Below, piece by piece: positions 6,010-49,576 of a stretch of DNA of 58,463 bases. This DNA comes from an uncultured Ignavibacteriales bacterium (GTDB lineage Bacteria > Zixibacteria > MSB-5A5 > GN15 > FEB-12), in contig CAYXJN010000009.1 in assembly GCA_964464605.1 (NCBI GenBank), positions 126,001-184,463 on the forward strand. Direction: 5' to 3'. The notes under the pieces are model-generated. The model was not told the origin of the DNA. It saw only the letters and a list, made by a program, of their open reading frames with translations, and searched no databases. The position numbers and the translations under genes were made by a program. The first letter of the stretch is position 1, and every line of letters starts with the position of its first letter.

Positions 6010-7017
6010 TTAAAAGGAAATTCCGACCGAAAAGCGCTGGGCTGAGGCCAGTCTGCCGAAATCCTGCCAGGCATAATCTAAGGTCAGCTTTGAGCTTTCC
6101 CCAAACGGCAGGGATAAACCACCGCCAAGCGTAAGTCCTTCTTCGGCATAATTGATCTTCTGGCCGGCACGCAGGAAAAAGCGCTCAGAATAGCCATATT
6201 GCATTCCCAAAGAACCCTGTTGTTCGTTGTCGTTCGGATGCTTGAACTCACCCGCGAACGTCACTAAAGACTTAGGGCCAAATTGGACATCGTAGGCAAG
6301 TCCCATTCTGAACAATAATGGCAAGTCATAGGGCGTTGCTTTTAATTGGGCGGTAACTCCGGGGTTGTTGCCTTCCCCGTCACGGTCATCATAATTCACA
6401 TCCAAATCTGAACCGCCGAACGTCATATCACTGCCGACATTGCTCATACTCATACCGACCCGAAGCGAACGAAAACCGGTATACAATAAAGTACCGAAAT
6501 CAAGCGCTACGCCATTGGCGGTTGCGTTATGGATTTTTTCACCCAAAAACTTAATCGAACCACCGAACGAAAACTGCGTGGTCAACTGACGCGCGTAACT
6601 GGCGCCGATAGCATATGATGTTGCGGTATAAAACTCACCGGTACCATCCGGGTTGTCGAAAGTCGTGATTTCGATATCATCCATCGAAAGCATCGTCGCC
6701 GAAACACCGATCACACCGACTCCTTCGAATGCTTTGGCTGCACCGAAGTAATTGAGTTTAACATCCAAAAGCCAATCGACCGAGGTAAACGCAAAATCAG
6801 TTCCTTCAACTTCCGCCAACCCAGCCGGATTCCAGAACATGGAATAGGCATCATTGGCAATCGCTACTGATGCTTCCCCGAGTGCCTGATATTTGGCACC
6901 CACGCCGATTTTCAAAAACTGTGCCCCAGCCATACCGACTTTGGAAGTCTCAGCAGCTGAAACAAACTGGACTGCGCCAATTAGGAGAAAGAATGCTATA
7001 CGCGTTTTCATATTCAT
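6010..7017 (-). CDS. PorV/PorQ (UPF0164) family outer-membrane beta-barrel
   Basis: AGAQFLKIGVGA..ALGEA..FWNPAGLA signature; terminal aromatic strand SVGISF. Confidence 0.85.
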   Translation of the reverse strand: MNMKTRIAFFLLIGAVQFVSAAETSKVGMAGAQFLKIGVGAKYQALGEASVAIANDAYSMFWNPAGLAEVEGTDFAFTSVDWLLDVKLNYFGAAKAFEGVGVIGVSATMLSMDDIEITTFDNPDGTGEFYTATSYAIGASYARQLTTQFSFGGSIKFLGEKIHNATANGVALDFGTLLYTGFRSLRVGMSMSNVGSDMTFGGSDLDVNYDDRDGEGNNPGVTAQLKATPYDLPLLFRMGLAYDVQFGPKSLVTFAGEFKHPNDNEQQGSLGMQYGYSERFFLRAGQKINYAEEGLTLGGGLSLPFGESSKLTLDYAWQDFGRLASAQRFSVGISF

Positions 7018-7022
7018 TCTCC

Positions 7023-9752: not shown

Positions 9753-9763
9753 ATCGTTACTCG

Positions 9764-12436: not shown

Positions 12437-12540
12437 CAAAGTGCGTCCTCCCATTAAGAATCCGCCGAGCGTTTTAAGCTTCGGCTACCGTAAACTGTCA
12501 ATGGTTCGGGTTGTCAGCGCTACGGTGTCCTTTGGCCTCA

Positions 12541-12567
12541 TTATCGAACTGTTCAGAAATTTCTTAA
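12541..12567 (-). promoter_or_regulatory. Sigma28-like promoter candidate for the TBDR operon
   Basis: Minus strand TTAAGAAA-N11-TTCGATAA vs FliA consensus TAAAGTTT-N11-GCCGATAA. Confidence 0.3.
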
Positions 12568-12641
12568 CCGATCGGCACACTTTTTTTGAAGGAGTCAAAA
12601 AATGAATGGAAAAGAAAAAGCGAGTCTAATCGACTGGCGGG

Positions 12642-12668
12642 TAAAAAATTGCGGCTAAATACCGACAT
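12642..12668 (+). promoter_or_regulatory. Sigma28-like promoter candidate for the SBP-kinase operon
   Basis: TAAA-N15-ACCGACAT. Confidence 0.3.
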
Positions 12669-12771
12669 AGATTACGAAAACGGTTCGGGATAAGTCTGTC
12701 TGCGGCGAAGAACGTACGGTCACAAACCTAATGAAAGGGTTGTAACTATTCTTACGCCGGTTATTCGATGC

Positions 12772-13704
12772 ATGGGCGTGTTGGCTCTTTTGTGCCACCT
12801 TCTCGCCAGCGGTGAGGTGCGCGCAGACAGAGAGGTGCATATTGCAACCCTAACCAGTGACACGCTGACTTCCACGACTCGAACGCTGCAAGGAGCGCGG
12901 AATGTCATTCTCCAGCAGAATGACAAAGTGGTGTTTCATCACTTTACCTGCGGATCCGCCGCCCATAGCAGTTCTGTGGTTGATTCTATCACCAGAATAA
13001 AACCAACACTTATTCTGACAGTAGGAACAGTCGCAACTGACATGGCGAAGAAGGAATTTCCGAATACGCCCATTATCTTCTCTTCCGTTATCCACCCCGA
13101 ACTATCCGGCTTCGTCGAGAGTAATAAAGTCCCAAACACGAATATGACCGGCGCATCGCTTGATATTCCGATCGACATTCAGTTTAAGTATTTTAAGAAA
13201 ATTGTCCCGAACATTAAGCGAATCGGTGTGCTCTACACGCCAGAAACCGAGCACCTGATCAATCAGGCTAAGGAAGCAGCTCGCGCGGAGGGGATCGACC
13301 TTGTTCCCGTAACCGTTCATGAAAACAAGGACCTCCCCTCTGCACTTGATTCTGTTTCCGCTCATGTCGATGGACTCTGGTCAGTACCTGACCCGCAACT
13401 GTTTACCCCGCAGTCTACCCGTTACATCTTATTGAACACGATTCGGCGCTCAATTCCGTTCATGGGTTTCTCCCGCAATGTTGTTGAATCAGGTGCGCTT
13501 TTTGCCCTCGATTTCGACTACAAAGCGGTAGGCATGCAGGCCGGCCGGATTGTCAATCAGGTTTTGGGAGGACAAAATCCCGGTACAATTGAGGTTTCTT
13601 CAGTCGACGTTATCTGGTTTCACTACAACGAAAAAACAGCGAAGTTGATAAACGTTGCCATACCGGATGAGTTAGTTGCCGTTGCCAAGGAGGTGTACAG
13701 ATGA
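12772..13704 (+). CDS. ABC-type substrate-binding protein (ABC_sub_bind-like); start uncertain
   Basis: LILTVGT, TPIIFSSV, NMTGAS, KRIGVLY, VESGALFAL..DYKAVGMQAG, NEKTAKLI. Confidence 0.85.
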   Translation: MGVLALLCHLLASGEVRADREVHIATLTSDTLTSTTRTLQGARNVILQQNDKVVFHHFTCGSAAHSSSVVDSITRIKPTLILTVGTVATDMAKKEFPNTPIIFSSVIHPELSGFVESNKVPNTNMTGASLDIPIDIQFKYFKKIVPNIKRIGVLYTPETEHLINQAKEAARAEGIDLVPVTVHENKDLPSALDSVSAHVDGLWSVPDPQLFTPQSTRYILLNTIRRSIPFMGFSRNVVESGALFALDFDYKAVGMQAGRIVNQVLGGQNPGTIEVSSVDVIWFHYNEKTAKLINVAIPDELVAVAKEVYR

Positions 13705-15374
13705 CACTTCCACTGGCATTGCGTCGCTTTTCATTGCGGGCAAAATTCATTCTGCCTATCTCGATCGTGGTATGCGTGAGCGTATTCGCTATCAGTACCT
13801 ACTTGATTCGTCAGCAAGCTGATGGCTTCCATCGTGAATTTGAAGAAAACGGCCAGACCATGTCCCGCCTTGTCGCCCGTCAGGCGGAAAGCGGCGTATT
13901 GTTTGAAGACCGTGACGATCTGAAATCGATTCTCGGGCAGTTAACGGTCATCGACGATGTCAGCTACGCCGTAATCACCGACAACGAAGGGAAAGTGCTT
14001 GCGGAAATCGGTACCTGGCCGACCACAAACCATGAAACGCCGAAACCGGTTACTATTGCTACCGATCGCAGCAGCATGCAGTACATCCAATTCGAGAAGG
14101 AGCATTCCTGCATTCAATTTGTCAGTCCGATTGTGACTATTCAGGAAACATTGAATCCGGAAAATCTCGGTACGACCGGACGAATCGATTCCAGCATGAC
14201 CAGCGGTTCTTCCGAGCAGCAAATCGGAACATTGCGTGTGCTCTGGTCGCTTGAACAAGTGGAAAAAGCGATCGAGAAATCGACTACAACGGCAATCGTC
14301 CTCACGCTCTTTATTCTCCTTTTGACCATTGTGGTATTGGCTCTTGTTGTTCGTGCCGTTATTGAACCGGTTAAACGGCTTGTGGAAGCAACCGACCAAG
14401 TTGCCTGCGGCAACTACACGCAGAAAGTGGAAGTTGTCCACGAAGATGAAATCGGCCAGCTCGCACTTACGTTCAACGAAATGATTGAATCGCTGCGGCA
14501 ATCGCGCGAGGCAATCGAAGAATACAACCGTACCCTCGAACAGCGTATTCAGGAGCGCACCCGCGCTTTGGAAGAAGCACAGGCGCAGTTGACCCAGTCG
14601 GAAAAGATGAACGCTATCGGCCAGCTCTCTGCCGGCGTTGCCCATGAACTCAATAATCCTCTCGGTGGTATTCTTGGCTATGCCCAATTCGCGCTTGAAA
14701 AGCTGCGTAAAGGGAATGTCATCAATCCGGATTCACCTGATTCTAAGAACTTTGTCCGCTACTTGAGTGATATCGAAACTCAGGCACGACGCTGCAAGAC
14801 AATTGTGCAAAACTTGCTGCGTTTCGCCCGCACCTCGCATACCGCTGAGTTCGAGGCAGTTGATATCAACAAGGCGATCGAAGAAACAAGAACATTCGTT
14901 GAACATCAGTTGAATATGCACCAGATACATTTGGTGACTGATTTGGGCGAAAATCTGCCGATTATCTACGGCAATATCTCGCAGTTACAACAGGTGTTTA
15001 CCAATCTGATTATCAACGCTATGCATGCATCCCCGCCCGATTCGGCTATTACAATCCGTACCCGCCATAGCCAGCCGGTCGGCGAGTTTGTCGGAACAGT
15101 GGAAATGCAGTTTATCGATCAGGGTTGCGGCATTCCGGCTGAGAACATGAAAAAAATATTCGAACCGTTCTTTACGACCAAAGAAGTCGGCAAAGGCACA
15201 GGACTTGGCCTGTCAGTGAGTTACGGCATTATCCGTGAGCATGGCGGCGAAATCCGTGTCCATTCGACCGTTGGCGTCGGCACCACCTTTACTATAGTGC
15301 TGCCGCTTCAGAAAAAGAGCCCGACAACCGATATTGACGTTAGGCCATTTACTTCGGTAGCGAGCAAAGGGTAA
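13701..15374 (+). CDS. Membrane sensor histidine kinase with HAMP domain (NtrB-like)
   Basis: Two TM helices, [18 protein letters not shown]-box [12 protein letters not shown]-box [30 protein letters not shown]. Confidence 0.95.
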
Positions 15375-36932: not shown

Positions 36933-36959
36933 TTTTTCACGCCTTTGGCGTGGCCGCTT

Positions 36960-37041
36960 GCGGAAGTGGCGAAATTGGTAGACGCACTATCTTGAGGGGG
37001 TAGCGGAGCAATCCATGCGGGTTCGAGTCCCGCCTTCCGCA
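36960..37041 (+). tRNA. tRNA-Leu (anticodon GAG), CCA not encoded
   Basis: GCGGAAG/CTTCCGC acceptor, D-loop TTGGTA, anticodon arm CTATC-TTGAGGG-GGTAG, long variable arm, GGTTCGAGTCC. Confidence 0.96.
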
Positions 37042-37087
37042 TTTTTGATTTATAAAAGGGTAGTTCACATAAAAGGCAGAGTGGTCC

Positions 37088-38764
37088 ATGAGCATTCCAA
37101 TCACAGTATCTCCCAAAATTGTAAGCAACATTGCAAACCAATATCAAAGTACTTCACGGATATTCATGGAGTACATTGATAACTCCCTTGATAGTGCGGA
37201 GAGTTTGTTTGATCAAACGAATCAATCTTACCCATATAAACTGAATATCAGCATCTCTATCAACTCTAAGGAAAAGACAGTCACGTTTGAAGATAACTGT
37301 ATAGGAATGGAAAAATCCACTTTATTGCGAATCGTACAACATATTGGTAACTCCGAAAAGAAAACCGACTTTACGACTAACGGGCAATTTGGTTTTGGAA
37401 TTCATGCTTATGCAGCCTGCTGCGATGAATTGATCGTTACTACTTTAATGAAGGGAAGTACCATAGCAAACAAAATGATTGTTACCAGAGATGCATATGA
37501 TAAAGGAGAAATTGCCGATCCAGTGACTGTTCCCAAAGATAGGCTGCCCATTTCTTCAGGTACAATCGTTAAGCTATCCAGATTTGATTCCGAGTGGTGG
37601 AAAGAAATAGCCATAGATGAACTCAAAAAGGAAATAGAAAAGCACTTTGAGCAATTACTTACGAGAAGCAATCTCGAAGTGAAGATTCGCTATGACAATC
37701 AAGAAGAGCTTTGCAAGCCTTTTGATTATGATGTCTACCAAGGCCAAACACTAGAACACGAAATTAGCGTGCTCGAAAGAGGAACCACAAAAAATGTTCT
37801 GCCAATGCCGATTCGTATTTTTTTAAAAGTTACCGATGACATAATCCCCAACAAAAGACCCATTTTTGTTAATAAAGGAAGAAGAATTGAAGAAGTACAG
37901 GCAATTAAATCATTCCGCAATAAATCCAAATACAGAACGGGGTTATGGGCACATAATAACTTAACTGGTTACATCGAAATTGTCGGACATTTAAGTCCTA
38001 CTTTAACTAGAGATGATTTCGTAAAAACAAGAAATCGCGGGCTGATATATGACGAAATCCGAGAATGGGAAGACGTGATTAATTCGGCTCTACAAGAAAT
38101 CAATAAGAAATCAGAATCTGAACATTTTGATAAACTAGAAAGTCTTTTATCAGAAGCTCTATCTAAACTTGCGCAGCAAGACCATCTTCGTTTTAGGACG
38201 CAAATATCTACAGGCGGACAAGATAATCTTATCACCAACGAACTCTCTGAAAATTCTATTTGGACTAAGTCACCGGGCGAAGGTGTTTCTAATCAATCTT
38301 CGGATCATACAGGGAAGACAAAGACACCGGTATCAGATACCGATGAAGAGACTAGTTTAAAAGGCAAAGAGCGAAAAAAATCCGGTTTCAATATTGAATT
38401 TCATGACAGGGAGCAAAAAAAAGCTGATGGAACACTTTTACGCTCCGATTACATAGAAGGTGGCGCAATAATCATCTATAAATCACATCCTGACTTTATG
38501 GATCGAGTAAAAAAAACTAATCAAGGAGATCCAAAGATTACCGAACGCTTAATCTCCTATCTCGCTTCCGAGATTGCCATACAGTATAAAGATAAGTTCT
38601 TTGCGGTCAGGGCTAAACAACCAGCCGTCCAAGAGTTACTCAATAGCCGTAAAGATCTATTTGTTGACATTTTTGATTTTGCATACCAATTCGAAAAAAT
38701 ACTACAGCCATTTGTAGGGAAGAACTTGCTCACTCTTGAAAATGAAGATGCCGAGAACAGTTAG
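37088..38764 (+). CDS. GHKL (Hsp90/MORC-like) ATPase
   Basis: Bergerat motifs MEYIDNSLDS, EDNCIGM, GQFGFGI, SGTIV; S5-like region TGYIEI..LSPTLTRDDF. Confidence 0.85.
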   Translation: MSIPITVSPKIVSNIANQYQSTSRIFMEYIDNSLDSAESLFDQTNQSYPYKLNISISINSKEKTVTFEDNCIGMEKSTLLRIVQHIGNSEKKTDFTTNGQFGFGIHAYAACCDELIVTTLMKGSTIANKMIVTRDAYDKGEIADPVTVPKDRLPISSGTIVKLSRFDSEWWKEIAIDELKKEIEKHFEQLLTRSNLEVKIRYDNQEELCKPFDYDVYQGQTLEHEISVLERGTTKNVLPMPIRIFLKVTDDIIPNKRPIFVNKGRRIEEVQAIKSFRNKSKYRTGLWAHNNLTGYIEIVGHLSPTLTRDDFVKTRNRGLIYDEIREWEDVINSALQEINKKSESEHFDKLESLLSEALSKLAQQDHLRFRTQISTGGQDNLITNELSENSIWTKSPGEGVSNQSSDHTGKTKTPVSDTDEETSLKGKERKKSGFNIEFHDREQKKADGTLLRSDYIEGGAIIIYKSHPDFMDRVKKTNQGDPKITERLISYLASEIAIQYKDKFFAVRAKQPAVQELLNSRKDLFVDIFDFAYQFEKILQPFVGKNLLTLENEDAENS

Positions 38765-39653
38765 TCAGAAGAACGAAATGGAAAAGCACCACGTTTTTGA
38801 GTTGATAGAGAAGATTGCCCCTCTAAACAACAAGTACAGAGATTTAATCAAAAATGGGGAGCGAGGCGTTGAGGTACTAAAGATAATGTGGGATACAGGT
38901 GAGATAATTATAGAATTTCTTCAAGTTCACGATGTTAAGCCTCATAATCTCTACTGGAAAATTTATGGAAAAGCTGAAGGCATTAAAGTCAGCTATATAA
39001 CACGTGACTTTTTAAGCTATTGTGTGCGGATCCGAAGTTATTTTAGCAGCAAGAATGAAATCGTAGAAACATTTCCAAGACTGAGAAGGTATTCCCTTTT
39101 TCGAGAAGCTTTTCCGTTGTTAGAAAATAGTAAATATAAAGTGACTGCTGTAGAAAAGGCAGAGCTTACTAAAATTCTGAACTCCTCAGGTGATCCCAGT
39201 GCCATTAAGAAGACTATCCAAGACATCAAATCAAAGCGAATCGGAATTAAAAACCCTCGTACCCAAAAGCTTGATGAAATGAAGCCTTTGGCCAACGATT
39301 TCCTTACCTTTTATACTGAGTTGACTCAGATTCTAAAATTGAACGATGTAGTTGCGATTTCTAAAATTAGGGCCGCTTGTTCACCAGAACTTTTCAATAC
39401 TATATCACAAGCAACGTCAGCCTTAACACAAGAAAATCTTTTTGTGCCAGAACTTCCTCATAGCACCAAACTTCCAGATAGCTGGATAGTTTTGTTAACT
39501 AATTTAAAGTTTCTTTCTTCATCTCAAATTGAGGTTCGGAACCGTTTCAGGAGACTCATGCCGCCCAAAAAATTGTTCGACCTAGCCGATATGATCGATG
39601 CTTTGAAATCTGACAACGGTATAATTAATTACAGAAAGCGAAAAGGAATTTGA
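38748..39653 (+). CDS. Basic hypothetical protein, N-terminal part resembles DUF1016/YhcG N-terminal domain
   Basis: IMWDTGEII...ITRDFLSYCVRIRSYF...RRYSLFRE; overlaps or abuts the ATPase gene; start could be 38742, 38748 or 38778. Confidence 0.6.
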   Translation: MPRTVSQKNEMEKHHVFELIEKIAPLNNKYRDLIKNGERGVEVLKIMWDTGEIIIEFLQVHDVKPHNLYWKIYGKAEGIKVSYITRDFLSYCVRIRSYFSSKNEIVETFPRLRRYSLFREAFPLLENSKYKVTAVEKAELTKILNSSGDPSAIKKTIQDIKSKRIGIKNPRTQKLDEMKPLANDFLTFYTELTQILKLNDVVAISKIRAACSPELFNTISQATSALTQENLFVPELPHSTKLPDSWIVLLTNLKFLSSSQIEVRNRFRRLMPPKKLFDLADMIDALKSDNGIINYRKRKGI

Positions 39654-39681
39654 ACCCCAAACGGGATTCACTTGTTCTGTA

Positions 39682-40059
39682 CTATTTCCTGCTTTTTACA
39701 ACCCCATCTTTAATCGCGATATGGTAATGTTCCTGGTCGGTGCCGGTGAGTTCAGGGTGCAAATAGATTTGCAGGGACTTATCATGAATCGCCAATGCCT
39801 GCGAAAGTAGTTTCATTCCCTCTTTCCACTTCTGTGGTTTGTCTTTCGTGCGAATATCCGCCGCCTGCAAAATGCTATGATTCGAATCTGTATCATCCGG
39901 TCGGTAATACGACGTAATCGTTATCTCCCCGCAGCCGGTTAATCGCGTGTACTGATCAATCCAGTTCAATAACTCTTTCAAACGGACATTCGCCACCAAA
40001 TTGCACGCCGCCGGCTGCGTGCAATAATCCCGTTCATCCTGCGCATGTTTAAACTGCAT
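39682..40059 (-). CDS. Peptidase M15A/M15_3 family zinc peptidase (endolysin-like)
   Basis: ITSYYR..SNH..QAADI..EHYHIA = SxHx6D + HxH zinc ligands; ATG 40059 directly after the upstream stop (ORF track starts 40173). Confidence 0.75.
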   Translation of the reverse strand: MQFKHAQDERDYCTQPAACNLVANVRLKELLNWIDQYTRLTGCGEITITSYYRPDDTDSNHSILQAADIRTKDKPQKWKEGMKLLSQALAIHDKSLQIYLHPELTGTDQEHYHIAIKDGVVKSRK

Positions 40060-40061
40060 GC

Positions 40062-41006
40062 TCACCATTCCACTTGATAGGTTGGCGCATCGGGGATCGT
40101 CACGCTCTTCTCTTTCGTTCTCGATCCTTTGTACGTCACGACCACGCGGTAATCCGTCGTATCTCCCAAACAACTTGAGAACACCAAATCCTGAATGAAC
40201 AATCCGAAACTATCGGTCTTGGCCGTCACGCTGAAACGTCCGGTAATCGTGCTGTCGCAGTAGTTGTTTACTGCATCGATTAGTGAAAACGTAACTTCAG
40301 CTTTATTCAGTGGATGTCCGGTCACATCGTATACATATCCGTACACCCGCGACGTATGCGGAGAGGCATCACTGATTATAAAGTCATATCCGGTTAACGA
40401 CATACTGTCGATATCACTCAGAACACTGAATGTGTCGGACGGAAAACTATACCCGATTTTGCTGCTGTACATTGAGTATCGATTCTCCCCGCTCGCCGTA
40501 TCTAAGTGAAACACCGCGTACCCGTTTGTTCCGGTATACTGCACCGCTATTACTGAACCAAACTTGTTGCGGATCGTGACCTTCGCGTTTGCCACTGCAA
40601 CATCGGTGCCGCTGGTATCGATAACATAGATGACTACCGTATCGGAACCGTCACCTGAAGGAACAGTACGCGGCTGGAAATACTCCCACACCCAGCTCGC
40701 TGCAGAATCTTCCCCGCTGTAAAAAATCCGGTATTCGACCGTATACAGCGTATCCCGAAACACGGTGTAAGTAGTGTCATACGATTGCTGAGTCGTTCGC
40801 TTTTTACTATTGTACAACACGCCGTTTTTGTAGAGATTCATAATCGTCGAATCCGTCGGCGTCAGCCATCGCGCCGGTACTTTCCAATCGGACGCGAACA
40901 ACTGCATACTGATCCCCAAAATCAAAAAGAGACTGCCGACAATTGCGGCAACGACAAACGACAACCGATCCGGCTGTACGTGTTTCCCCCGCCCCCTCTG
41001 CTTCAT
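40062..41006 (-). CDS. Exported beta-sandwich protein with carboxypeptidase-regulatory-like / tail-fibre N-terminal-like domains
   Basis: Hydrophobic N-terminal segment; VANAKVTI..YTGTNGYAVF; VYGYVYDVTGHPL..AKTDSFGLF. Confidence 0.6.
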   Translation of the reverse strand: MKQRGRGKHVQPDRLSFVVAAIVGSLFLILGISMQLFASDWKVPARWLTPTDSTIMNLYKNGVLYNSKKRTTQQSYDTTYTVFRDTLYTVEYRIFYSGEDSAASWVWEYFQPRTVPSGDGSDTVVIYVIDTSGTDVAVANAKVTIRNKFGSVIAVQYTGTNGYAVFHLDTASGENRYSMYSSKIGYSFPSDTFSVLSDIDSMSLTGYDFIISDASPHTSRVYGYVYDVTGHPLNKAEVTFSLIDAVNNYCDSTITGRFSVTAKTDSFGLFIQDLVFSSCLGDTTDYRVVVTYKGSRTKEKSVTIPDAPTYQVEW

Positions 41007-42979
41007 AGTTTCACCTTTCCTAATTTCCCTTTTCCAATTCGTTTTGTCCGAAACTCCGGCTCACCGACAAGTGTGCTGCTTAATGTCAACGTATCGGTGA
41101 ATATGTTCGATGTAACCGTGAGCGATGTCGTATCCGCATCCTCTTCGTATTCTGCGATAAACGTAAACGGGTTGTATCCGGTCGAGTCGACTGAAGTATG
41201 ATTATTTTCTTCATACCAATAGGTCACGATCGGATCAACTTTCCCCTCAGCCGATGTCACCCCCGAATACACCGTGTCACCATAGCTATTGATAACTTTG
41301 ACCGATGCTCCCGCGACCGGATCACCTGTACCATCCTGAACGAGTAAATCAAGTGTCCGTTTAACCGCAAACTCCGCCGCCGAACTGATTCCACCAAACA
41401 CGATATTAGTATCCTTCGCCTGATTGACATACCCGCCCGGATTCAGCCAGACACCATCGGTAATCGAATTGTTCAACGTATTGTCATTATCATAGCCGAG
41501 ATAGAACGTACGAAAATTGGAAATCTTTACCAATGTGTCGATAGTTGTGTCAATCGGAATAAAAGTGTCACCGACAAGCGCAAAATTGTTTCCTCCGATG
41601 CCATTGTCCTCATCGTTGAACCGAATTAGGGTCTGGCACCCTTCCCATCGATTGTTACGAATCGTGAGCGAATGATTAGTCAATGCTCCTGCGCCGAAAA
41701 ACGTACACCATGCCGTTGCACCGCTTGTACTCAGGCTTCTTGCTTTGATCGTGTTGTTTTCGAACATGATATTGGCGCTGTCATCTGCGCCGTGCGTGTA
41801 ATCCCACACGAATGCGCTGGTGCCGATAGCGGTTGTGCCCGATTCATTATCCGCCGTCCCGATAAACGTATTATTTCGGATTTTTACATAGGAAAACTGA
41901 TCGGACCCGGACTCCCTATTGCGATACCGGAAAACGCGAACCGTTCCGTCATTATCTTCACCCGTCGGTCCTTCATGCGCATCGACATAATTCCTTTCAA
42001 TAATGATTGAATCGCTTGAGCGTGAATTGTTGGTGGTCGATTCGAGCATTATTCCCCGGCTGCCATATTTGGTGTTGCCCGAAGTTACCGTGCAATTCTG
42101 AATAAGTGAACCGTTACCCGGGAAACGCATCAGAATACCGTACGCATTTGCCGATGAATGCCCGATATCGCAACTACCGCTTACGAAGCACGCAAGCGAA
42201 TCCCAATACCGGTTGCGGGCATCGACCGTGATATCGCAATCAACAATTTGAAATGCTCCGGTTTTAGTCTGAATGCCGATATGTCCTTCAGCAATAACCG
42301 TCACCCCTTCCATGCGAACGGTGTAGTTGCCTGATTGCGAAGTAAAATTATCAGTGTTGCAAACTGCGCTCTGGTAATTTTGACGATCTGAATACGATTC
42401 AGAATAATTATGGTAGACTCCCCCTCGGTGCAGGATATTATACCCGGTGCTGATTCCTTCTCCAACTGCTCCCCATTCGACACAACTTGAGTTGTGGCCG
42501 TCGACACTCAGATTGACCGAATCGATCGTGACATCATGCCCGTCAATCAGCCAGATACAATGTCTGCGTGACGGTGAACTTGCCCCCGGACTATTCAATC
42601 CATGACCGATTTGAATAGGAGAGCGAATCCCCCCTCCTTTAATGACAATATCAGACGGCCGTGACCCGCCCACTGTGTCGATCAAAATCCCGCACTCGTT
42701 ACTACTGCCGGATGAACTGGAGTCAGTATCAAACACGAGCGTGTCGTTGTCGAGCAGAACACGGACTCCTGTTACACCGCCAACTATGCGAATTATTCTT
42801 CCTGCTTGGGAAAAGACCGTTACCGTTTCCGGGCTATCATCCACCACAATCGTGTCATTCGATGATGCCGTATACGGGAAACTCACTACGTCGACTGTCA
42901 ACACAACTTTGGCTGCAAAGCACGGACAACTAAAAGCTGCCATCCACACCAGAGATAAAAAGGTCGACGACCTTCTCAT
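41003..42979 (-). CDS. Secreted right-handed parallel beta-helix protein
   Basis: Signal peptide; repeats LIQNCTV, IIERNYV, IRNNTF, FENNTI, IRNNRW; C-terminal Ig-like GDPVAGASVKV..TSAEG. Confidence 0.7.
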   Translation of the reverse strand: MRRSSTFLSLVWMAAFSCPCFAAKVVLTVDVVSFPYTASSNDTIVVDDSPETVTVFSQAGRIIRIVGGVTGVRVLLDNDTLVFDTDSSSSGSSNECGILIDTVGGSRPSDIVIKGGGIRSPIQIGHGLNSPGASSPSRRHCIWLIDGHDVTIDSVNLSVDGHNSSCVEWGAVGEGISTGYNILHRGGVYHNYSESYSDRQNYQSAVCNTDNFTSQSGNYTVRMEGVTVIAEGHIGIQTKTGAFQIVDCDITVDARNRYWDSLACFVSGSCDIGHSSANAYGILMRFPGNGSLIQNCTVTSGNTKYGSRGIMLESTTNNSRSSDSIIIERNYVDAHEGPTGEDNDGTVRVFRYRNRESGSDQFSYVKIRNNTFIGTADNESGTTAIGTSAFVWDYTHGADDSANIMFENNTIKARSLSTSGATAWCTFFGAGALTNHSLTIRNNRWEGCQTLIRFNDEDNGIGGNNFALVGDTFIPIDTTIDTLVKISNFRTFYLGYDNDNTLNNSITDGVWLNPGGYVNQAKDTNIVFGGISSAAEFAVKRTLDLLVQDGTGDPVAGASVKVINSYGDTVYSGVTSAEGKVDPIVTYWYEENNHTSVDSTGYNPFTFIAEYEEDADTTSLTVTSNIFTDTLTLSSTLVGEPEFRTKRIGKGKLGKVKL

Positions 42980-43743
42980 GGATTCCTCCGGGCAACTTGT
43001 CCGGAACGCAAGCGCGCCCGTGTAATTCCACTCGAAAGCCGTTTACGCGGCTCTTCCAACTGAGTGTCGTGATAGTAAACAACAAACGTGGGGCGATTCG
43101 AAGAGGTTGTCGCTTCTGTTGAATGAAAGTCGAACAGGTTACTCGACGATGCCTTCAACACAACTCCCCCAAAATTGCTTCCCGTGTACCACCCGCGCAC
43201 CATTGCCGTATCGAGTCGCCAGCGTTTGGTAACACCGGCATCGGTCGTCGCCACGCTTACGCTATCCATCTGCGTACCGCTACGATCGGTAGTGGTATTC
43301 TGACAGCCGTTTGTTCCCCAGGCGCGAGCAGTAGTTATCTCTATATCATAATCGTACTGATTCCAATTCGCCATCTCCAACCCGGTCGCATCGCCGCCAT
43401 TGAGCGTCCCTTCCTTCCAGTCACGAAGGCATTTGAAAATATGAACAATACGTGAAGTTGTCGTCGGCGCATTCCCAACCACCATGTTCAAAAAAGCGGA
43501 GTCGATAACTTTGTTGCTGCCAATAAGTGATGCAAGATGTCCATTCGTAATTCGAATAAGCACCCCACGTACTGTGTAAGAGTTAACCTGCAGAACATTC
43601 GTTGCGCCGTAGTTATTCACCGCCGTTCCAGATGAGGCTATATACGTATCTTCAATATCCGTATACGTCACTACCGTGCTGTCACTCTGTGCGATTACCG
43701 GCAAAAACCATAAGAGAAATAGTACTGATACTAATTTCATCAT
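42976..43743 (-). CDS. Secreted DNRLRE/TGF-beta-propeptide-like domain protein
   Basis: Signal peptide from ATG 43743 (GGAGG RBS, TAATG overlap); EDTYI..NYGA..IDSAFL..DWKEG..NW..MVRGW..NFGGVVL..FHSTE..NRPTFVVYY. Confidence 0.75.
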   Translation of the reverse strand: MMKLVSVLFLLWFLPVIAQSDSTVVTYTDIEDTYIASSGTAVNNYGATNVLQVNSYTVRGVLIRITNGHLASLIGSNKVIDSAFLNMVVGNAPTTTSRIVHIFKCLRDWKEGTLNGGDATGLEMANWNQYDYDIEITTARAWGTNGCQNTTTDRSGTQMDSVSVATTDAGVTKRWRLDTAMVRGWYTGSNFGGVVLKASSSNLFDFHSTEATTSSNRPTFVVYYHDTQLEEPRKRLSSGITRARLRSGQVARRNP

Positions 43744-46700
43744 TACCTCCGTCTCCCGATCACTGATGCAGAATGAAACAGGAGAACAGAATTGGCCGAT
43801 GTCGCTGCAGCAACGCGCAGCCTGAACCAGATTCGCAGCCATCTTCCCCGGAACAGACTGCTTCCCGATGCCGCAGTCACCGCTAATTTCGCCTCTGACA
43901 ATGTTGTCGCGGATCTGGTAGTACTATCCTGATACACGACATGCGGTTCTCTTCCAAGTGTGGCGCTGCTTAGTGTGTCGCCATATAGCCGGATCGAATC
44001 GAGCACTAACTGCGTTGATTTCATCCAATAGATAAAGCGAACCGAATCGGCGAGAAAGCTATATGGAACTTGTCCAACAACTTCGAACCGCAACGTATCT
44101 CCAGAACCAACAGAACTGGAGCAGGCAAAGAGAAACATCGTGTCGTTCGGCCCCGATCCGTTGCCGCGACGAAGATACTCGGTTATTGTCCATGATGATT
44201 CCGCAGCCGACGCGACCGCCGGAGTCAAAAGCAAATTGAGCGGAATCTCTTCCCGCTGCCAATTGATATCACCGATGGCAATGCCCAAATCCTTGATATC
44301 TGTCGAATCAATAGTGGATGCGGCGATTTCATTGGTCGAAACGGAATTATTGGCAAGATCGGTTGAATCAAGTGTATTTGCCGCTACTTGTGTACTTGTG
44401 ACACCACTCGATTTGATTTGTAATTGTCCCGACGCCGATGTATCAAAAAAGCTGGTTGCGTAATCGACATGGAAAGTCACGGTATCTCCGTCGACATCGA
44501 CATTGATCGCCGCTCCCTTTTGCAGAACAAGGCTATCCCGTTCAACCGTGACTCCGGTTCCGTTGCCGACAGTATCAACTTTCAGAAAATCATCAACCCC
44601 GGTCGGCGGAGTTACCCACCCCGCTGAATCGACAGCACCGGCTACATCGACAAAGCTTAATAGTGCTCCTGCGGTCGGCTTTGAGCGTGGGAAATAAAAA
44701 AGATGGCCGCCTGCAGTATCGACAATCAGCTTCTTTGCCGCTAATGAATCCGCTTCGGTCAGCCCGGATTCTCCGAATTGCAAAACGGCATTGTCATGCG
44801 AAGAGAACTTGGTCGTATCCCCATTTTCAGATATCGACAGAATCGTATCACCGGTAGTTCCGGTTTTGATATGCACAACATCGCTGATAGCAACAAGCTC
44901 ACCTGTACCGATCGCTGATGCATCAATTTTTGGCGTGATAATAGAACGCAAACCGTCGATAACTCCGGAATCTGCTTGCGCGATTAACGAATCGCCGCTA
45001 ATCAGCCATTGTGGGGCATTTTCATCCCAAAAATGAATTTTCCCTGTTGACCCTGTTTGTAATTTGATATTACCGCCGCTGCCGTTCGCGAAAATTCGTG
45101 TCGTATCACCGCTTGTTCGCGCCATTACCGTCGGCGTAAATAGCATCGATTTTGCTGAAACCGTATCGAACACATATCCATAATTGGTCGTATCGATATG
45201 CTGCTTTGCGAGCCCGGTTGATTTAAGATATATCCGTGCTGAATCGGTCGAGCCAATACGGTTGATCCCGATTCCGGAATCACCGCTCAACACCGGGTTA
45301 CCGACATCCCACAATCCACCGGATGCTAACGTGGTATCGACCTGCATATTGTCACCCGATCCACCTGCGCCGACCGAATCATTCCCCCATACCACATTGC
45401 CACCCGTCCCCAATTTCAAAATCTGACCGCCCGTACCGCGCGTGGACGGTAATCGGTATTCGGTCGCGGTATCATGACCAATCAATACCTGTCCGTCATG
45501 ACGAATCACCATCGCCCGTTTCAGCGTGCTGTCGGTTTGGGTCATACGAATGAGAAAGCTCATCCCTCCTTGCGTCGAGTCTGCGGAGGTATACAAGTAC
45601 GGATGAATCGCCGCATAGTATCGATCAACCGATCCGGCTGTGTTACCGAAATAGACCCCTGATCCACGCGCTGCTACCGCGCTGTTCGAAACTAATTTGA
45701 GGAACCCAGAACTTAGCCCATCCTGTGGTTGCACGGAATCTGCCGCTAATGACCCGGACTGTCCTGTCCCTTTGACAGTAACTCCGGCAATTGCATTGTT
45801 CGGTGAAACTAAGGGGCCAACCGCATTGGTAATATTCTCCGGCGCGGTACCGCTGTTATCAGCGGTGTTTCCGGAATACTGCGCGTTGAGAAAAATGAAT
45901 GTGTCGTTTGTGCCGCCGGTTGCAAACCCGATTCGATTTGAATCCAGCTCCATAAAATTGATTCGAATATTCTTCCCGTTCACTAACCGCACTCCCTGCG
46001 CGAAACGGGTAACTTTCAGTGAATTAACAAAAATATCCCGCGACGTTTCAATATCGAATCCGTATTTGGCGCCGACTGTATCAGCAGAACGGACGGTTAC
46101 ATCTCCGAATTTCGTCCCCCCCAAGCAACCGGAAAGCAAAATTCCTTTGTTCGTGACGGTATCAACATCGATGAATACCCGGTCAAACGAAGAACCGGAA
46201 TCCGCCTCAATCCACAGCGCTGCTAAACCGCTCGTAGTCGTCCGCGCGCCGCTAATATACAATTCACCTATATGCGCACGTTTGCTTGCATATAAATGAA
46301 TGCCATTCAGCCCGTTGTAACTGCGTATATAAGCACGATCAATAGTAACCGTATTTGTAAACGCCATGCGAATACCGGAACTGTCATTGTTTACGTCAAT
46401 GTTAACCGATCCGATATGCACATTGGTCGGTTCATATGCCGCACCGCTGGTATCACCCCGGTCAATGCCTAACGCATCAATAGAAGAATCATTCGCCCAA
46501 ATATGTATGTCACCGATCGTAATATCCCGCGATCCCTGGTAAATATGCACCCCGCGCGTCCCATGCGACACCTGCGTACGATAATTCGACGAGGTATCGG
46601 CAATCGTCACTCCTTCAATCGAAACATTCTGACAGAAATATGTCCCTAACCGCTCAGTGACAATCGGGCGACCGATAACGGTAACATTCCTGACGATGTC

Positions 46701-47048
46701 ATTTGAGCCGTTGCCTGCCGCAACGTGGAACACGCCGTCGATAACGGCAGAATCGGCAAATATAAATGTCCGGTTGGAATGACTGTTTGTTATCGAACTC
46801 GGTACCCGGTAGACACCTTTCGGGAAATAGATAACGTTATACGGCGATGCCATCAGCGAGTTGATACCGGTCTGATCGGAAATCGTATCGCCCGCGTTGA
46901 TACCCGGCCAGTAGCGGGCGTTGATCCAATGATAATTTTTCATGTGTCCGGCCACTGAAACCGGCGCACTGCCGGATGCCGACAGATTCGGATGCGTAAA
47001 AACTGCTGCGGCTAAGAGAACCGCAACGATAAACAAGCGATGCAGCAT
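43743..47048 (-). CDS. Large secreted tailspike/tail-fibre-like protein (pectate-lyase-like beta-helix plus fibre motifs)
   Basis: Signal peptide; GDTISDQTGI..VIYFPKGVYRV; YRLPSTRGTGGQILKLGTGGNVVW; repeats VTSTQVAANTLDSTDLANNSVSTNEIAASTIDSTDI; RBS GAGGGAG. Confidence 0.7.
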   Translation of the reverse strand: MLHRLFIVAVLLAAAVFTHPNLSASGSAPVSVAGHMKNYHWINARYWPGINAGDTISDQTGINSLMASPYNVIYFPKGVYRVPSSITNSHSNRTFIFADSAVIDGVFHVAAGNGSNDIVRNVTVIGRPIVTERLGTYFCQNVSIEGVTIADTSSNYRTQVSHGTRGVHIYQGSRDITIGDIHIWANDSSIDALGIDRGDTSGAAYEPTNVHIGSVNIDVNNDSSGIRMAFTNTVTIDRAYIRSYNGLNGIHLYASKRAHIGELYISGARTTTSGLAALWIEADSGSSFDRVFIDVDTVTNKGILLSGCLGGTKFGDVTVRSADTVGAKYGFDIETSRDIFVNSLKVTRFAQGVRLVNGKNIRINFMELDSNRIGFATGGTNDTFIFLNAQYSGNTADNSGTAPENITNAVGPLVSPNNAIAGVTVKGTGQSGSLAADSVQPQDGLSSGFLKLVSNSAVAARGSGVYFGNTAGSVDRYYAAIHPYLYTSADSTQGGMSFLIRMTQTDSTLKRAMVIRHDGQVLIGHDTATEYRLPSTRGTGGQILKLGTGGNVVWGNDSVGAGGSGDNMQVDTTLASGGLWDVGNPVLSGDSGIGINRIGSTDSARIYLKSTGLAKQHIDTTNYGYVFDTVSAKSMLFTPTVMARTSGDTTRIFANGSGGNIKLQTGSTGKIHFWDENAPQWLISGDSLIAQADSGVIDGLRSIITPKIDASAIGTGELVAISDVVHIKTGTTGDTILSISENGDTTKFSSHDNAVLQFGESGLTEADSLAAKKLIVDTAGGHLFYFPRSKPTAGALLSFVDVAGAVDSAGWVTPPTGVDDFLKVDTVGNGTGVTVERDSLVLQKGAAINVDVDGDTVTFHVDYATSFFDTSASGQLQIKSSGVTSTQVAANTLDSTDLANNSVSTNEIAASTIDSTDIKDLGIAIGDINWQREEIPLNLLLTPAVASAAESSWTITEYLRRGNGSGPNDTMFLFACSSSVGSGDTLRFEVVGQVPYSFLADSVRFIYWMKSTQLVLDSIRLYGDTLSSATLGREPHVVYQDSTTRSATTLSEAKLAVTAASGSSLFRGRWLRIWFRLRVAAATSANSVLLFHSASVIGRRR

Positions 47049-47335
47049 ATCTCCCTCATCTCCGGCGGCATCAGGTGCGAAAAATGCCCTCCGGTTTTTA
47101 GAAGAGCGCTACATTCCAAAGCTGCATGCTGACTGTAGAGAAATTGAGAAAATCGATAAGAAATAAAAAACCCGTCGGGTTTCTGCCCTTTCCGACGGGT
47201 TCATTTGATGAAGAGCTATCCGGCTACATCCGCAACCGAAAGCCCGAGTGAGTGTCAGTGTTACCTGACATCCCTCCCTTAGCCCCCAATGTTGGCGATG
47301 TACCCACCCTCGATCCGCAATACATGCGCCGCAAT
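47049..47335 (-). promoter_or_regulatory. Structured 5' leader / attenuator-like element of the island operon
   Basis: Long hairpin 47222-47304, internal terminator 47165-47201, degenerate direct repeat 47085-47117 vs 47184-47231. Confidence 0.4.
47165..47201 (-). terminator. Intrinsic terminator upstream of the 1101-aa gene
   Basis: Minus strand AACCCGTCGG-13nt-CCGACGGGTT followed by TTTTATTT. Confidence 0.65.
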
Positions 47336-47511
47336 AGTATCTACAAATTTTGTGCCGTTTTCTGATCGCTTCAGTCAGAAACTGACCGCTATAATCGATT
47401 GACTGTCAATACATTACAAACATACTGGAGCGGCCGTTTTTGGGCTGTTTCATTTGTTGTTTCGATAACGAACGGTTGCTGTTTCACGCCGTTTCTCTTT
47501 GAATTAGAGGT

Positions 47512-47547
47512 AAAAAAAAACGAGCAGGTTTTTTACGCCTGCTCGTT
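47512..47547 (-). terminator. rpsA intrinsic terminator
   Basis: AACGAGCAGG/CCTGCTCGTT stem with T9 tail on minus strand. Confidence 0.85.
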
Positions 47548-47569
47548 GTTATCAGCGAATGAAAGAAGC

Positions 47570-49576
47570 TTACAGTTCGGTGTCCCCGGACTGGGCGGCC
47601 TCTCCGTCGTTAGAAGCGGGACGAAGATTTTCCGGCATGGCATCCGCCATAGTCGTAGATCCTCCACCCTGATGCTTCGCCAGATATTCATCCAGTTCAG
47701 CCTTCTCACGTTTCTTATAGTATGCGGCAACAGACAAAACGATCTTGTGCTGGTTCTTGTCGAACTCAAGCACCTGAAGCGGGAGCTTTTCTCCTTCAGC
47801 AAACACACCGGTCGGATCATTTAAATCCTTTTTACCGAGCTGCGCAGTCGGAACGAATCCTTCCACTTCACCGTCGAGATCAACAATCACGCCGCGATCC
47901 ATCACTTTGGTAATCGTTCCGAGACACTCCGTACCAACCGCGAACTTGCGGGAGATTTCGGGCCACGGATCATCACCAAGCTGCTTAAAGCCGAGTGAGA
48001 TACGACGATTCTCATGATCGATCTTGATAATCTTCACGTCAATCTTATCACCCTTCTTCATAATTTCAGAGGGGTGCTGAATACGCTTGGTCCATGACAT
48101 ATCGGAGATATGAACCAATCCGTCGATACCTTCTTCCAGCTCGATAAACGCGCCGAAAGCGGTCAGATTACGGACTTTGCCGGAAACGATTTTACCGACC
48201 GGGAACTTCTCTTCGATAGTATTCCATGGATCCGGTTCCATCTGTTTGATACCGAGCGAAATCTTTTCGTTATCTTTATCTACGGAAAGCACGATCGCAT
48301 CGACTTTATCATTCACATTCATAATCTTGGACGGATGCTTGATATGCTGTGTCCATGACATTTCGGAAACGTGAATAAGTCCTTCGATTCCTTTTTCTAA
48401 TTCAATAAACGCGCCGTAGTCGGTAACGGAAACAACGCGGCCGGTAATTTTGGTACCGATCGGATATTTCTGTTCGATATTTTCCCACGGATACGGCGTC
48501 ATCTGCTTCAAGCCGAGAGAAATACGCTGCGTTTTATCATCGAAATCGAGAATTTTCACATCAATCTTGTCGCCGAGCGAAACGATTTCGGACGGGTGCT
48601 TAATACGACCCCATGACATATCGGTGATATGTAAGAGTCCGTCAACGCCGCCCAAGTCAATAAAGACGCCGAAATCAGTAACGTTCTTGACCACACCCTG
48701 ACGAATCTGCCCGACGGCGATTTCGTTTAAGAGTGAGGAGCGCAGCTTGTCCCGCTCCTGCTCAAGAACCATGCGGCGGGAAACGACGATATTACGGCGG
48801 TTCTTGTTAATCTTGATGATCTTGAAGTCCATCATCTGATTCAAGAGTGCATCAAAATCCGGAACCTGACGCAATGCTACCTGCGAGCCAGGCAAAAAGG
48901 CATCGACTCCCATAACGTCCACAACCAAACCACCCTTGATACGACGGGCGATTCGACCCTGAACGGTTTCACCATTGTCATGAATATCGCGGATTCTGTC
49001 CCAGACCCGCATGAAATCTGCTTTTTGTTTGGACAGAATAAGCTGGCCGTTGTTGTCTTCGATCTGTTCGAGGAAAACCTCAATCGGGTCGCCGACTTTA
49101 ACGGTTACCGGATACGGAAACTCGGTAATCGGAATAATGCCTTCGGATTTGAAACCGACATCGACAATAACGTCGTCTCTGGTAACCCCGAGCACGCGTC
49201 CTTTGACGATTTCACCTTCTTTGATGTCCTGAATGGTGGAATCATACATCGCCACCATCGCATCGTAATCCTGCTTGTCATAGACAACGCCGGATACGTC
49301 GGTGATTTTCATCGACTCGACCGATGCAATCGGGCTTGGGGCTTCAATAATCGCCGCACGTTGGCGAGCTTTTTCGGCGACACGTTTGTGCCGCTCAGTC
49401 GCTAACAACTGGCTTTCTTTTGCCTCTTCAACAGCATTTTGAACGACTGTTCCCAGCCCTGCTGTTTCCGGTTTCGTGATTTTTGTTTTGACCCGTTTGG
49501 TCTTCTTTGCGGTCACTGCTTTACGGCGTGATAACCGTGCAGCTGCGCTTTCTGTTTCTTGTTTGGCCTGCGCCAT
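47570..49576 (-). CDS. rpsA: 30S ribosomal protein S1 with N-terminal extension
   Basis: Six S1 repeats (DVGFKSEG, FLPGSQV, DGLLHITDMSW, EGLIHVSEMSW, DGLVHISDMSW); AGGAGG upstream; cmk-plsC-rpsA synteny. Confidence 0.97.
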   Translation of the reverse strand: MAQAKQETESAAARLSRRKAVTAKKTKRVKTKITKPETAGLGTVVQNAVEEAKESQLLATERHKRVAEKARQRAAIIEAPSPIASVESMKITDVSGVVYDKQDYDAMVAMYDSTIQDIKEGEIVKGRVLGVTRDDVIVDVGFKSEGIIPITEFPYPVTVKVGDPIEVFLEQIEDNNGQLILSKQKADFMRVWDRIRDIHDNGETVQGRIARRIKGGLVVDVMGVDAFLPGSQVALRQVPDFDALLNQMMDFKIIKINKNRRNIVVSRRMVLEQERDKLRSSLLNEIAVGQIRQGVVKNVTDFGVFIDLGGVDGLLHITDMSWGRIKHPSEIVSLGDKIDVKILDFDDKTQRISLGLKQMTPYPWENIEQKYPIGTKITGRVVSVTDYGAFIELEKGIEGLIHVSEMSWTQHIKHPSKIMNVNDKVDAIVLSVDKDNEKISLGIKQMEPDPWNTIEEKFPVGKIVSGKVRNLTAFGAFIELEEGIDGLVHISDMSWTKRIQHPSEIMKKGDKIDVKIIKIDHENRRISLGFKQLGDDPWPEISRKFAVGTECLGTITKVMDRGVIVDLDGEVEGFVPTAQLGKKDLNDPTGVFAEGEKLPLQVLEFDKNQHKIVLSVAAYYKKREKAELDEYLAKHQGGGSTTMADAMPENLRPASNDGEAAQSGDTEL

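Follow-up and report, generated by a model that had tools for sequence, protein, structure and literature searches.

A chromosomal operon for exported fibre-like proteins and a candidate LAS peptidase, with a probable origin in a podovirus late region

Introduction

Tailed phages are taken to assemble their particles entirely in the cytoplasm. What, then, is to be made of a bacterial operon whose large fibre-like proteins begin with export signals and whose last gene resembles a phage lysin, and where could such an operon have come from? The question is raised by five genes, g1 to g5 in the order of transcription, at 39682-47048 of a stretch of 58,463 nucleotides (nt) from an uncultured Ignavibacteriales bacterium (GenBank assembly GCA_964464605.1, contig CAYXJN010000009.1); this whole stretch is called the window below. 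With moderate confidence, we favour the answer that these genes form a cassette once located distally in the late operon of SU10-like podoviruses of an uncultured lineage, and that g1 to g4 are exported and g5 is a lysin.

Results

Gene order and export signals

Five co-directional open reading frames (ORFs) on the minus strand fill 39682-47048 (Table 1). Both the ORFs and the letters at the junctions confirm the tight coupling described in an earlier note that had been made from the DNA letters and their translations, here called the sequence-only reading. The first two genes share a TAATG overlap (GGAGGTAATG), g2/g3 and g3/g4 are joined by ATGA overlaps (CCATGA and CTATGA, respectively), and g4 and g5 are separated by a 2-nt gap with no overlap (TGAGCATG). 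The start of g2 was taken at MMKLV (43743) and that of g5 at MQFKH (40059), the latter because it is common to all 10 g5 homologues.

The same reading had noticed hydrophobic, signal-like N termini on the first four proteins, and these were found again: those of g1, g2 and g3 are of the Sec type, with conservation among the relatives of g1 and g3, and that of g4 is a signal or an anchor. Signal peptides were judged by reading, by a crude in-house rule and by conservation among relatives. The N termini of g1 (MLHRLFIVAVLLAAAVFTHPNLSA, predicted cleavage before SG), g2 (MMKLVSVLFLLWFLPVIA, predicted cleavage between VIA and QS) and g3 (MRRSSTFLSLVWMAAFSCPCFA, predicted cleavage before AK) have a short basic stretch, 11 to 14 uncharged hydrophobic residues and a small-residue cleavage site. 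The g4 protein begins with a long basic n-region followed by about 24 hydrophobic residues, and g5 has no hydrophobic N terminus and is leaderless. Among the full-length relatives of g1 (30-87% identity) a signal-like N terminus was seen by eye in 8 of 8 and by the crude rule in 6 of 8, the two missed ones having annotated starts that are too long; in 6 of the 8 the signal ends in AQ or GQ. All five database relatives of g3 have a signal peptide, followed by a conserved SxPYT stretch.

The operon was also said to be free of the C-terminal domain of the type IX secretion system (T9SS) and of phage head and integration genes, and both statements stand. The T9SS domain (TIGR04183, Por_Secre_tail) has 28 matches genome-wide and none in the operon, and no capsid, terminase, portal or integrase was detected with Pfam, PHROGs and NCBIfam in the 7 proteins of the island. 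The C termini of g1, g2 and g3 end in short basic tails (...VIGRRR, ...QVARRNP and ...GKLGKVKL; window 43746-43790, 42979-43020 and 41006-41050), and many relatives likewise close with a hydrophobic strand and, after it, R/K residues. These tails may be a shared docking or anchoring motif. A sorting signal in g1 made up of a C-terminal transmembrane segment and RRR was considered and dropped, as outside the N terminus no 19-residue window passes the hydrophobicity threshold.

Homologues in a podovirus genome

The sequence-only reading had proposed a search of IMG/VR for homologues in viral genomes, and this search was productive. Alignments of g5 and g3 found one contig only, G160, and g1 alone had no match. 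G160 is an uncultured podovirus of 48,644 bp with a 127-bp terminal repeat. Its PHROG matches include TerL (phrog_2, 5e-25), a portal/adaptor and an internal virion protein, and SU10_MCP (1.4e-13) and SU10_portal (3.9e-11) are present as well; compared with GenBank phages, its TerL finds only distant terminases at less than 30% identity. After the internal-virion genes comes a run encoding proteins of 2298, 207, 644, 232, 115, 63 and 150 amino acids (aa), then a phosphoesterase of phrog_221 and, on the other strand, DNA-metabolism genes.

Homologues of g1, g3 and g5 occur in this run in the same order. A profile of 13 g1-type C-terminal domains matches the 2298-aa protein at its end (hmmsearch 2.9e-8; hhalign probability 91.7, E value 7.8e-7), the 644-aa protein is a full-length homologue of g3 (24% identity over 671 columns, E value 6e-12), and the 115-aa protein matches g5 (E value 1e-13, 32% identity). 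The 2298-, 207-, 644- and 232-aa proteins are signal-like at the N terminus, the 63-aa protein is a membrane protein, and the 150-aa protein has a signal peptide. By the crude rule, signal-like N termini are found in 9 of 25 late-strand G160 proteins versus 3 of 37 others, and the nine include the 2298-, 207-, 644-, 232- and 150-aa proteins. As the large proteins of G160 have signal peptides too, the export signals appear to belong to the phage module and not to have been added by the host. From these comparisons of sequence and gene order, an origin of the operon in the distal late region of the G160 phage lineage is well supported. When all G160 phage proteins were compared with the bacterial genome by tblastn, they matched only g3, the g3 paralogues and g5. 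Elsewhere in G160, signal-like N termini are seen on a 173-aa protein after the portal and on a 228-aa protein that ends the block of head genes (L024, 2435-2953 and 7291-7974).

Table 1. Features of the operon, its surroundings and the small signal-peptide gene of other copies
Feature	Position	Strand	Description
g1, 1101 aa	43743..47048	-	signal peptide, pectate-lyase-type beta-helix ~34-400, fibre-repeat stretch ~817-950, conserved C-terminal domain ending ...VIGRRR
g2, 255 aa	42976..43743	-	signal peptide and CBM96-type carbohydrate-binding domain
g3, 658 aa	41003..42979	-	signal peptide, SxPYT mature start, large secreted-protein family, CarboxypepD_reg-like stretch near the C terminus
g4, 314 aa	40062..41006	-	N-terminal signal or anchor, then beta-sandwich (CarboxypepD_reg-like) domains; constant upstream partner of g5
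g5, 125 aa	39682..40059	-	leaderless LAS (M15-like) peptidase candidate; H61-x6-D68, E110-x-x-H113
Terminator-like hairpin	39651..39670	-	directly 3' of g5; consensus scan, pattern match only
rpsA-g1 spacer, 520 nt	47049..47569	-	holds the rpsA terminator and a second terminator-like hairpin, 47166-47184
h558 (HATPase_c_3 ATPase) and h305	37088..39653	+	foreign low-GC pair in place of the holin-like and small signal-peptide genes
tRNA-Leu(GAG)	36959..37042	+	Rfam 51.6 bits, also found by ARAGORN; borders the variable slot, with its 3' end towards the island
Small signal-peptide protein	L002 10900-11397; L003 1780-2262; L005 ~4600-5066; L007 100-615 (-); L022 18207-18659		follows the holin-like gene

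The beta-helix protein g1

With g1 itself, no Pfam, PHROG, NCBIfam or PDB sequence match was obtained, and the beta-helix attributed to it before is supported through its relatives, of which an exhaustive search found 62 among 1.84 billion representatives. In the relative P0008, which is 38% identical over g1 residues 34-554, Pect-lyase_RHGA_epim, Beta_helix and NosD were detected, and g1 residues 54-292 match the beta-helices of three proteins with phage tail N-domains: P0009 (Phage_T7_tail at 1e-44; match to g1 at E value 7e-33), P0011 (phrog_1640) and P0015 (phrog_1858). PHROG tail families were found in 7 of the 34 relatives scanned and no PHROG family in 25. An intact orthologue, P0002, is 87% identical to g1. 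The g1 alignment found no relative in the species genomes or in the metagenome contigs.

The beta-helix of g1 is thus homologous to phage ones, as expected of a tail fibre or tailspike. It could be that g1 to g3 and their phage counterparts are true virion parts of this kind, which would pass through the membrane via Sec, reach their fold only outside the cytoplasm and be added to the particle during or after lysis, so that the bacterial copy would be a relic of such a virus. The relationship of the g1 beta-helix to those of proteins with T7-tail-fibre or phrog_1640 N-domains would fit this explanation; a stretch common to g1 and a 698-aa protein at a related bacterial locus (L002, see below) matches the phrog_892 tail fibre, and G160 has no large fibre-like genes at the tail-fibre position other than these counterparts, all of which encode signal peptides. 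However, neither Pfam nor PHROG revealed a virion-docking N-domain in g1, whose signal peptide runs straight into the beta-helix, unlike the arrangement in P0009, P0011 and P0015. The g3 family, given its bacterial members with T9SS- or dockerin-like ends, is moreover a cell-surface family, and we know of no route by which periplasmic proteins are joined to cytoplasmic particles. We regard this explanation as quite unlikely.

The proteins g2, g3 and g4

The second protein had been called a DNRLRE protein. The DNRLRE model of NCBIfam has no match in g2, and residues 25-115 instead match Pfam CBM96 (PF24517) at 1.4e-7, with 31.9 bits against a gathering cut-off of 26. A homologue of 285 aa is present in L002 (E value 7e-12). 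For g3, there is an intact orthologue with 88% identity (P0076) and a full-length homologue of 689 aa in the metagenome locus L005 (E value 4e-23). The sequence-only reading had seen g3 as a second beta-helix protein; the domain searches gave CarboxypepD_reg matches below threshold and no beta-helix, which stays putative. The tail-fibre-N-like end that had been described for g4 was not recovered, as the searches found only a weak CarboxypepD_reg match (Pfam, 8.2e-6, under the cut-off) and phrog_31677, a family of unknown function (1.1e-5).

Three paralogues of g3 lie on another contig (C5) of the same genome. Two of them are in tandem (756 and 789 aa; C5 3998-12110, L026) and have dockerin-like repeats at their ends, and next to them is a gene for a 288-aa protein that combines a cohesin domain with a T9SS tail. 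Such a neighbourhood hints that a bacterium with a T9SS uses cohesin-dockerin pairs to display proteins on its surface. The third paralogue (1391 aa; C5 75113-86936, L027) contains Ig-like domains and, at its end, a weak match to FlgD_ig; it adjoins genes for a GNAT protein, a polysaccharide deacetylase and four GT4 glycosyltransferases.

The candidate peptidase g5

The last protein had been named an M15A peptidase. The metal and catalytic motif is consistent with this, and the profile and fold matches are weak. In LAS (MEROPS M15) peptidases the metal ligands are H-x(3-6)-D and an H further on, and the catalytic acidic residue precedes this H by three positions; g5 has this pattern. A search of 5.8 billion proteins gave 10 homologues of g5, with 53-75% identity, among them an intact orthologue at 75% (P0065). 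The residues H61, D68, E110 and H113 are invariant in these 11 sequences and in six distant ones including the phage copy; in the locus L007, the first motif reads HPLGQALD. Pfam Peptidase_M15_3 was detected in 3 of the 11 members (best E value 0.033, under the cut-off), and no PDB sequence match was found. The AF2 model of g5 (pLDDT 87.1) has weak matches to Hedgehog/LAS folds, and its top BFVD match is a viral protein labelled Sonic-hedgehog-like (E value 9.8e-3). The Atlas clusters nearest to g5 (score 0.96-0.97) are 85-92% viral, and the nearest ones that bear a Pfam domain carry Peptidase_M15_3 or HH_signal (score 0.94). From the motif and these matches, g5 is likely to be a divergent LAS peptidase.

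Bacterial relatives and metagenome loci

Outside the window's own genome, g1 was found in none of 41 genomes (1/41 in all), and the g5 profile matched 2 of 160 genomes of the order, namely, the window's own and, weakly, G157; the g5 alignment gave no match in the species genomes. One metagenome locus, L002, comes from a family-level relative (identity of 75% for rpsA, 60% for tpiA, 64% for cmk and 44% for plsC) and has the same flanks as the window, with liaF-like, SBP, cmk, plsC and rpsA genes on one side and tRNA-Leu(GAG), secG and tpiA on the other. Its slot holds the gene for the 698-aa protein, which is like the g1 C terminus, followed by g2-like, g4-like (52%) and g5-like (63%) genes and then by genes for a 104-aa membrane protein and a 165-aa signal-peptide protein. 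In 12 other relatives, none of tpiA, secG and the tRNA was found within about 8 to 12 kb downstream of rpsA.

In L002, L003, L004 and L005 (4/4), the gene immediately upstream of the g5-like gene is g4-like. In L007 the g5-like gene was recognized by a profile match, and the gene upstream of it was called g4-like from its position and from a C-terminal motif seen by eye. The loci L003, L004 and L007 are short contigs, and L004 ends too early to show what follows g5. The order in L005, a phage-like contig, is a g3-like gene (with signal peptide), a g4-like gene, a g5-like gene, genes for a 105-aa membrane protein and a signal-peptide protein, and a phosphoesterase of the G160 family (phrog_221). 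On the strand opposite to this cassette, L005 encodes two N6/N4 and one C5 DNA methyltransferase and an HNH endonuclease (6667-14120).

All five loci that extend beyond g5 (L002, L003, L005, L007 and G160) encode a small holin-like protein and then a small signal-peptide protein. The former has 63-105 aa and one or two hydrophobic segments by an in-house rule. The latter has 150-201 aa, is rich in glycine and aromatic residues and ends in an aromatic residue or leucine in 4 of 5 copies; those of L002, L003 and L005 are related by BLAST, and the other two were matched by position only. This protein may take the part of spanins as a component of the outer membrane. No spanin-like pair was seen in any copy of the cassette.

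The window itself has no holin-like gene next to g5, and a tblastn search found no homologue elsewhere in the genome. This bears on the first of two origins that the sequence-only reading had offered, a domesticated module in which a wall hydrolase opens the peptidoglycan for an exported appendage. In the form of a release module resembling the type 10 secretion system (T10SS), such a module would let the LAS peptidase open the peptidoglycan locally so that Sec-exported proteins in the periplasm reach the cell surface, aided elsewhere by the holin-like and small signal-peptide proteins. The holin ChiW and the peptidase ChiX are needed for the release of Sec-exported chitinases (PMC5778951, PMC4259817), and H61, D68, E110 and H113 of g5 have the residue spacing of ChiX. 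L002 also keeps cargo-like genes, g5, the holin-like gene and the gene for the small signal-peptide protein, with no virion genes seen within 12.9 kb, and the cassette is under purifying selection (see below). However, the same gene order is present in a complete, lytic-looking phage genome, where plain lysis suffices as an explanation, and no spanin-like pair accompanies it. In 5 of 5 other copies g5 is followed by the holin-like gene; its absence here weakens the wall-opening option for the window strain, and we consider a release module unlikely.

The chromosomal slot

The block occupies a variable slot that adjoins tRNA-Leu(GAG) and lies between rpsA and secG, with tpiA, secG and the tRNA on one flank and rpsA, plsC and cmk on the other. 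Between the tRNA and g5 lie two genes on the plus strand, h558 and h305, which overlap. The first encodes an Hsp90/MORC-like ATPase (Pfam HATPase_c_3, 1.2e-10), and the second belongs to no known family. The GC content of the pair is 0.377 versus 0.49, and its tetranucleotide distance is above that of all 300 random windows. The h305 gene runs convergently to g5 (stops at 39653 and 39682). Compared with the other copies, the window strain appears to have lost the end of the cassette, that is, the holin-like and small signal-peptide genes, and to have the foreign pair in its place; this position may be a slot for defence-type cargo. At the other end, the rpsA-g1 spacer is the presumed promoter region of the operon. 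Its second hairpin lies about 350 nt after the rpsA terminator, and Rfam gave no family match in 47166-47500.

Could the five genes instead be an ordinary operon of the host that encodes secreted adhesins or polysaccharide lyases, has no particular tie to phages and was a source of single genes for them? The genome contains three g3 paralogues, one of them beside exopolysaccharide genes, the composition of the operon is close to that of the host, and the closest relatives of g1 all look like secreted bacterial proteins, with no PHROG match in any of P0003 to P0007. On the other hand, homologues of g1, g3 and g5 keep their order in a phage genome, holin-like genes follow the g4-g5 pair in phage-like contigs, the Atlas clusters around g5 are predominantly viral, and the block is adjacent to a tRNA, with g1 and g5 not found in the other genomes of the order except for the one weak g5 match. 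We consider a host operon of this kind very unlikely.

Population data and maintenance

The operon, whole or in part, was found in 20 run rows from 8 studies, 11 of which rows may be the source of the window DNA; none of the 20 is on record as RNA. A strain that is 1.2% diverged (X15) allows a comparison. Over 40440-47600, an X15 contig differs by 87 substitutions and 3 indels, and each of the indels is in the rpsA-g1 spacer. Another X15 contig, over 39751-40469, shows 50 differences and two 2-nt insertions in the g4-g5 spacer; beyond 39751 its sequence resumes at 37045 after 2780 other letters, so that h558 and h305 are replaced in the X15 strain. Among the differences listed (40 of 151), 31 are in g5, at codon positions 1/2/3 = 7/1/23 and with four amino-acid changes, and by this comparison purifying selection acts on g5. 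Each of the five ORFs is intact, with no coding indels relative to X15.

These data speak to whether the operon is a decaying scrap of prophage without present function. Part of the picture would suit such a scrap, since the cassette end has already been lost and replaced and the virion and integration genes are absent. Against this stand the five intact ORFs, the lack of coding indels relative to the X15 strain, the third-position bias of g5, the intact orthologues at 75-88% identity and the recovery of the operon in runs of 8 studies. We therefore regard decay without function as highly improbable.

Discussion

The second origin offered by the sequence-only reading was a relic of a virus group whose structural proteins transit Sec, and it is favoured here by the G160 homologues, their order and their signals. 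Several observations weigh against a phage cassette. The module was found in only one complete phage genome and one phage-like contig, and 50,697 GenBank phage records contained no match to g5, g3, g1 or the 2298-aa protein of G160. The fold and profile matches of g5 are all under the usual thresholds. Comparison by hhalign showed no similarity between g2 and the 207-aa protein or between g4 and the 232-aa protein of G160, and therefore the colinearity of g2 and g4 is positional only. Some bacterial proteins of the g3 family have T9SS-like or dockerin-like ends, so that transfer between phage and host may have gone in either direction. The tetranucleotide distance of the operon is at the 90th percentile, near host composition. 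No integrase was seen in G160 by the searches made, and neither an integrase nor other prophage genes nor a repeat of the tRNA 3' end (att) was found in the island.

A podoviral cassette would work in the following way. In the phage, g1 to g4 would be sent by Sec to the envelope, outside the cytoplasmic line of virion assembly, where they would act on surface polysaccharide by binding or cleavage; g5, as a leaderless LAS peptidase, would be released by the holin-like protein and cut the peptidoglycan at lysis. In the bacterium, with the head, tail and packaging genes gone, g1 to g4 would stay as exported glycan-active or adhesive proteins of the envelope, and their role could be remodelling of the surface or exclusion of related phages. 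Without a holin, g5 would have no evident route to the wall. We infer a role in glycan binding or cutting because g1 has a pectate-lyase-type beta-helix, g2 has a CBM96 domain and the g3 family occurs beside exopolysaccharide genes of the host, and g1 to g4 have probably been kept as envelope proteins with such a function.

A fixed run of very large, fibre-like proteins with signal peptides at the tail-fibre position of a podovirus is a misfit with the picture of cytoplasmic assembly, and the same run, intact in a bacterial chromosome, deepens the puzzle. If our explanation is true, phages export glycan-active proteins to the host envelope before lysis, which would point to a little-studied function in receptor destruction, egress or exclusion. 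Alternatively, part of the particle would mature outside the cytoplasm. In its boldest form, the proposal would be that a tailed-phage lineage exports giant fibre or beta-helix proteins for host recognition (up to 2298 aa) via Sec, that these are made outside the cytoplasm as the outermost parts of the virion or as a phage-built structure on the host surface, and that the bacterial operon is a domesticated copy building an exported appendage. We think this doubtful, with rather long odds against it. The bacterial copy offers a handle for testing such ideas without phage culture, and it also adds a very rare family of LAS-type lysins and a small signal-peptide protein at the usual position of spanins.

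How does the operon compare with known systems? The sequence-only reading had thought it the best candidate for an undescribed system. This is too strong in view of the signal-peptide proteins of Porphyromonas phages, the fibres of Bdellovibrio and ChiWX with the T10SS. Exported fibre-like phage proteins followed by a small lysin are unusual for phages, with hints already in print; a literature search on signal peptides of tail fibres found no paper on the subject.

The integrated-prophage hallmarks of integrase, att repeats and head and packaging genes are absent from the island. Phage lysis cassettes of the T5 endolysin and Ply500 type combine a small leaderless LAS/M15 endolysin with a holin. 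As in these cassettes, g5 is small and leaderless, has H-x6-D and (D/E)-x-x-H, and lies at the end of a late operon with a holin-like gene next to it in 5 of 5 other copies. Unlike them, the window has no holin, and the other copies carry a small, beta-rich signal-peptide protein at the spanin position. A gene for a small membrane protein next to the candidate wall hydrolase, as in holin-endolysin cassettes, is present in L002, L003, L005, L007 and G160 and not in the window.

The T10SS of Serratia marcescens serves to secrete chitinases otherwise stuck in the periplasm by means of a holin and a LAS peptidase (PMC5778951, PMC4259817). Its peptidase ChiX is leaderless, with the zinc ligands His68, Asp75 and His123 and the catalytic Asp120 (PMC5778951). 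The operon resembles ChiWXYZ in placing a LAS peptidase with the same metal and catalytic spacing beside Sec-exported, polysaccharide-active proteins. It differs in that the cargo-like genes are in the operon itself and are of the fibre/beta-helix type, and in that the module is also present in a complete phage genome; of the holin, hydrolase and spanin-like genes that lie by the cargo in type 10 secretion, the window has the hydrolase and cargo-like genes only.

The phages of Porphyromonas gingivalis encode signal-peptide proteins, recognized by a Q-rule and of unknown function (PMC10367356). The proteins studied here, by contrast, are very large (up to 2298 aa), fibre- or beta-helix-like and arranged in a fixed run before a lysin. 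In Bdellovibrio, the MAT fibres have a conserved domain of about 130 aa after the signal peptide, with an S74 chaperone in many (PMC10769870). They are similar in being proteins like phage tail fibres that start with a signal peptide, and those of MAT are found on the bacterial surface; g1 differs in having no Peptidase_S74 match and no Pfam or PHROG domain at that place. Finally, podovirus tailspike depolymerases of the P22 gp9 type (PMC6966330) are comparable in that the beta-helix of g1 is homologous to those of proteins with phage tail N-domains and that the position is at the end of a podovirus late operon. Unlike these tailspikes, g1 has a signal peptide in place of the docking N-domain and carries a long C-terminal extension.

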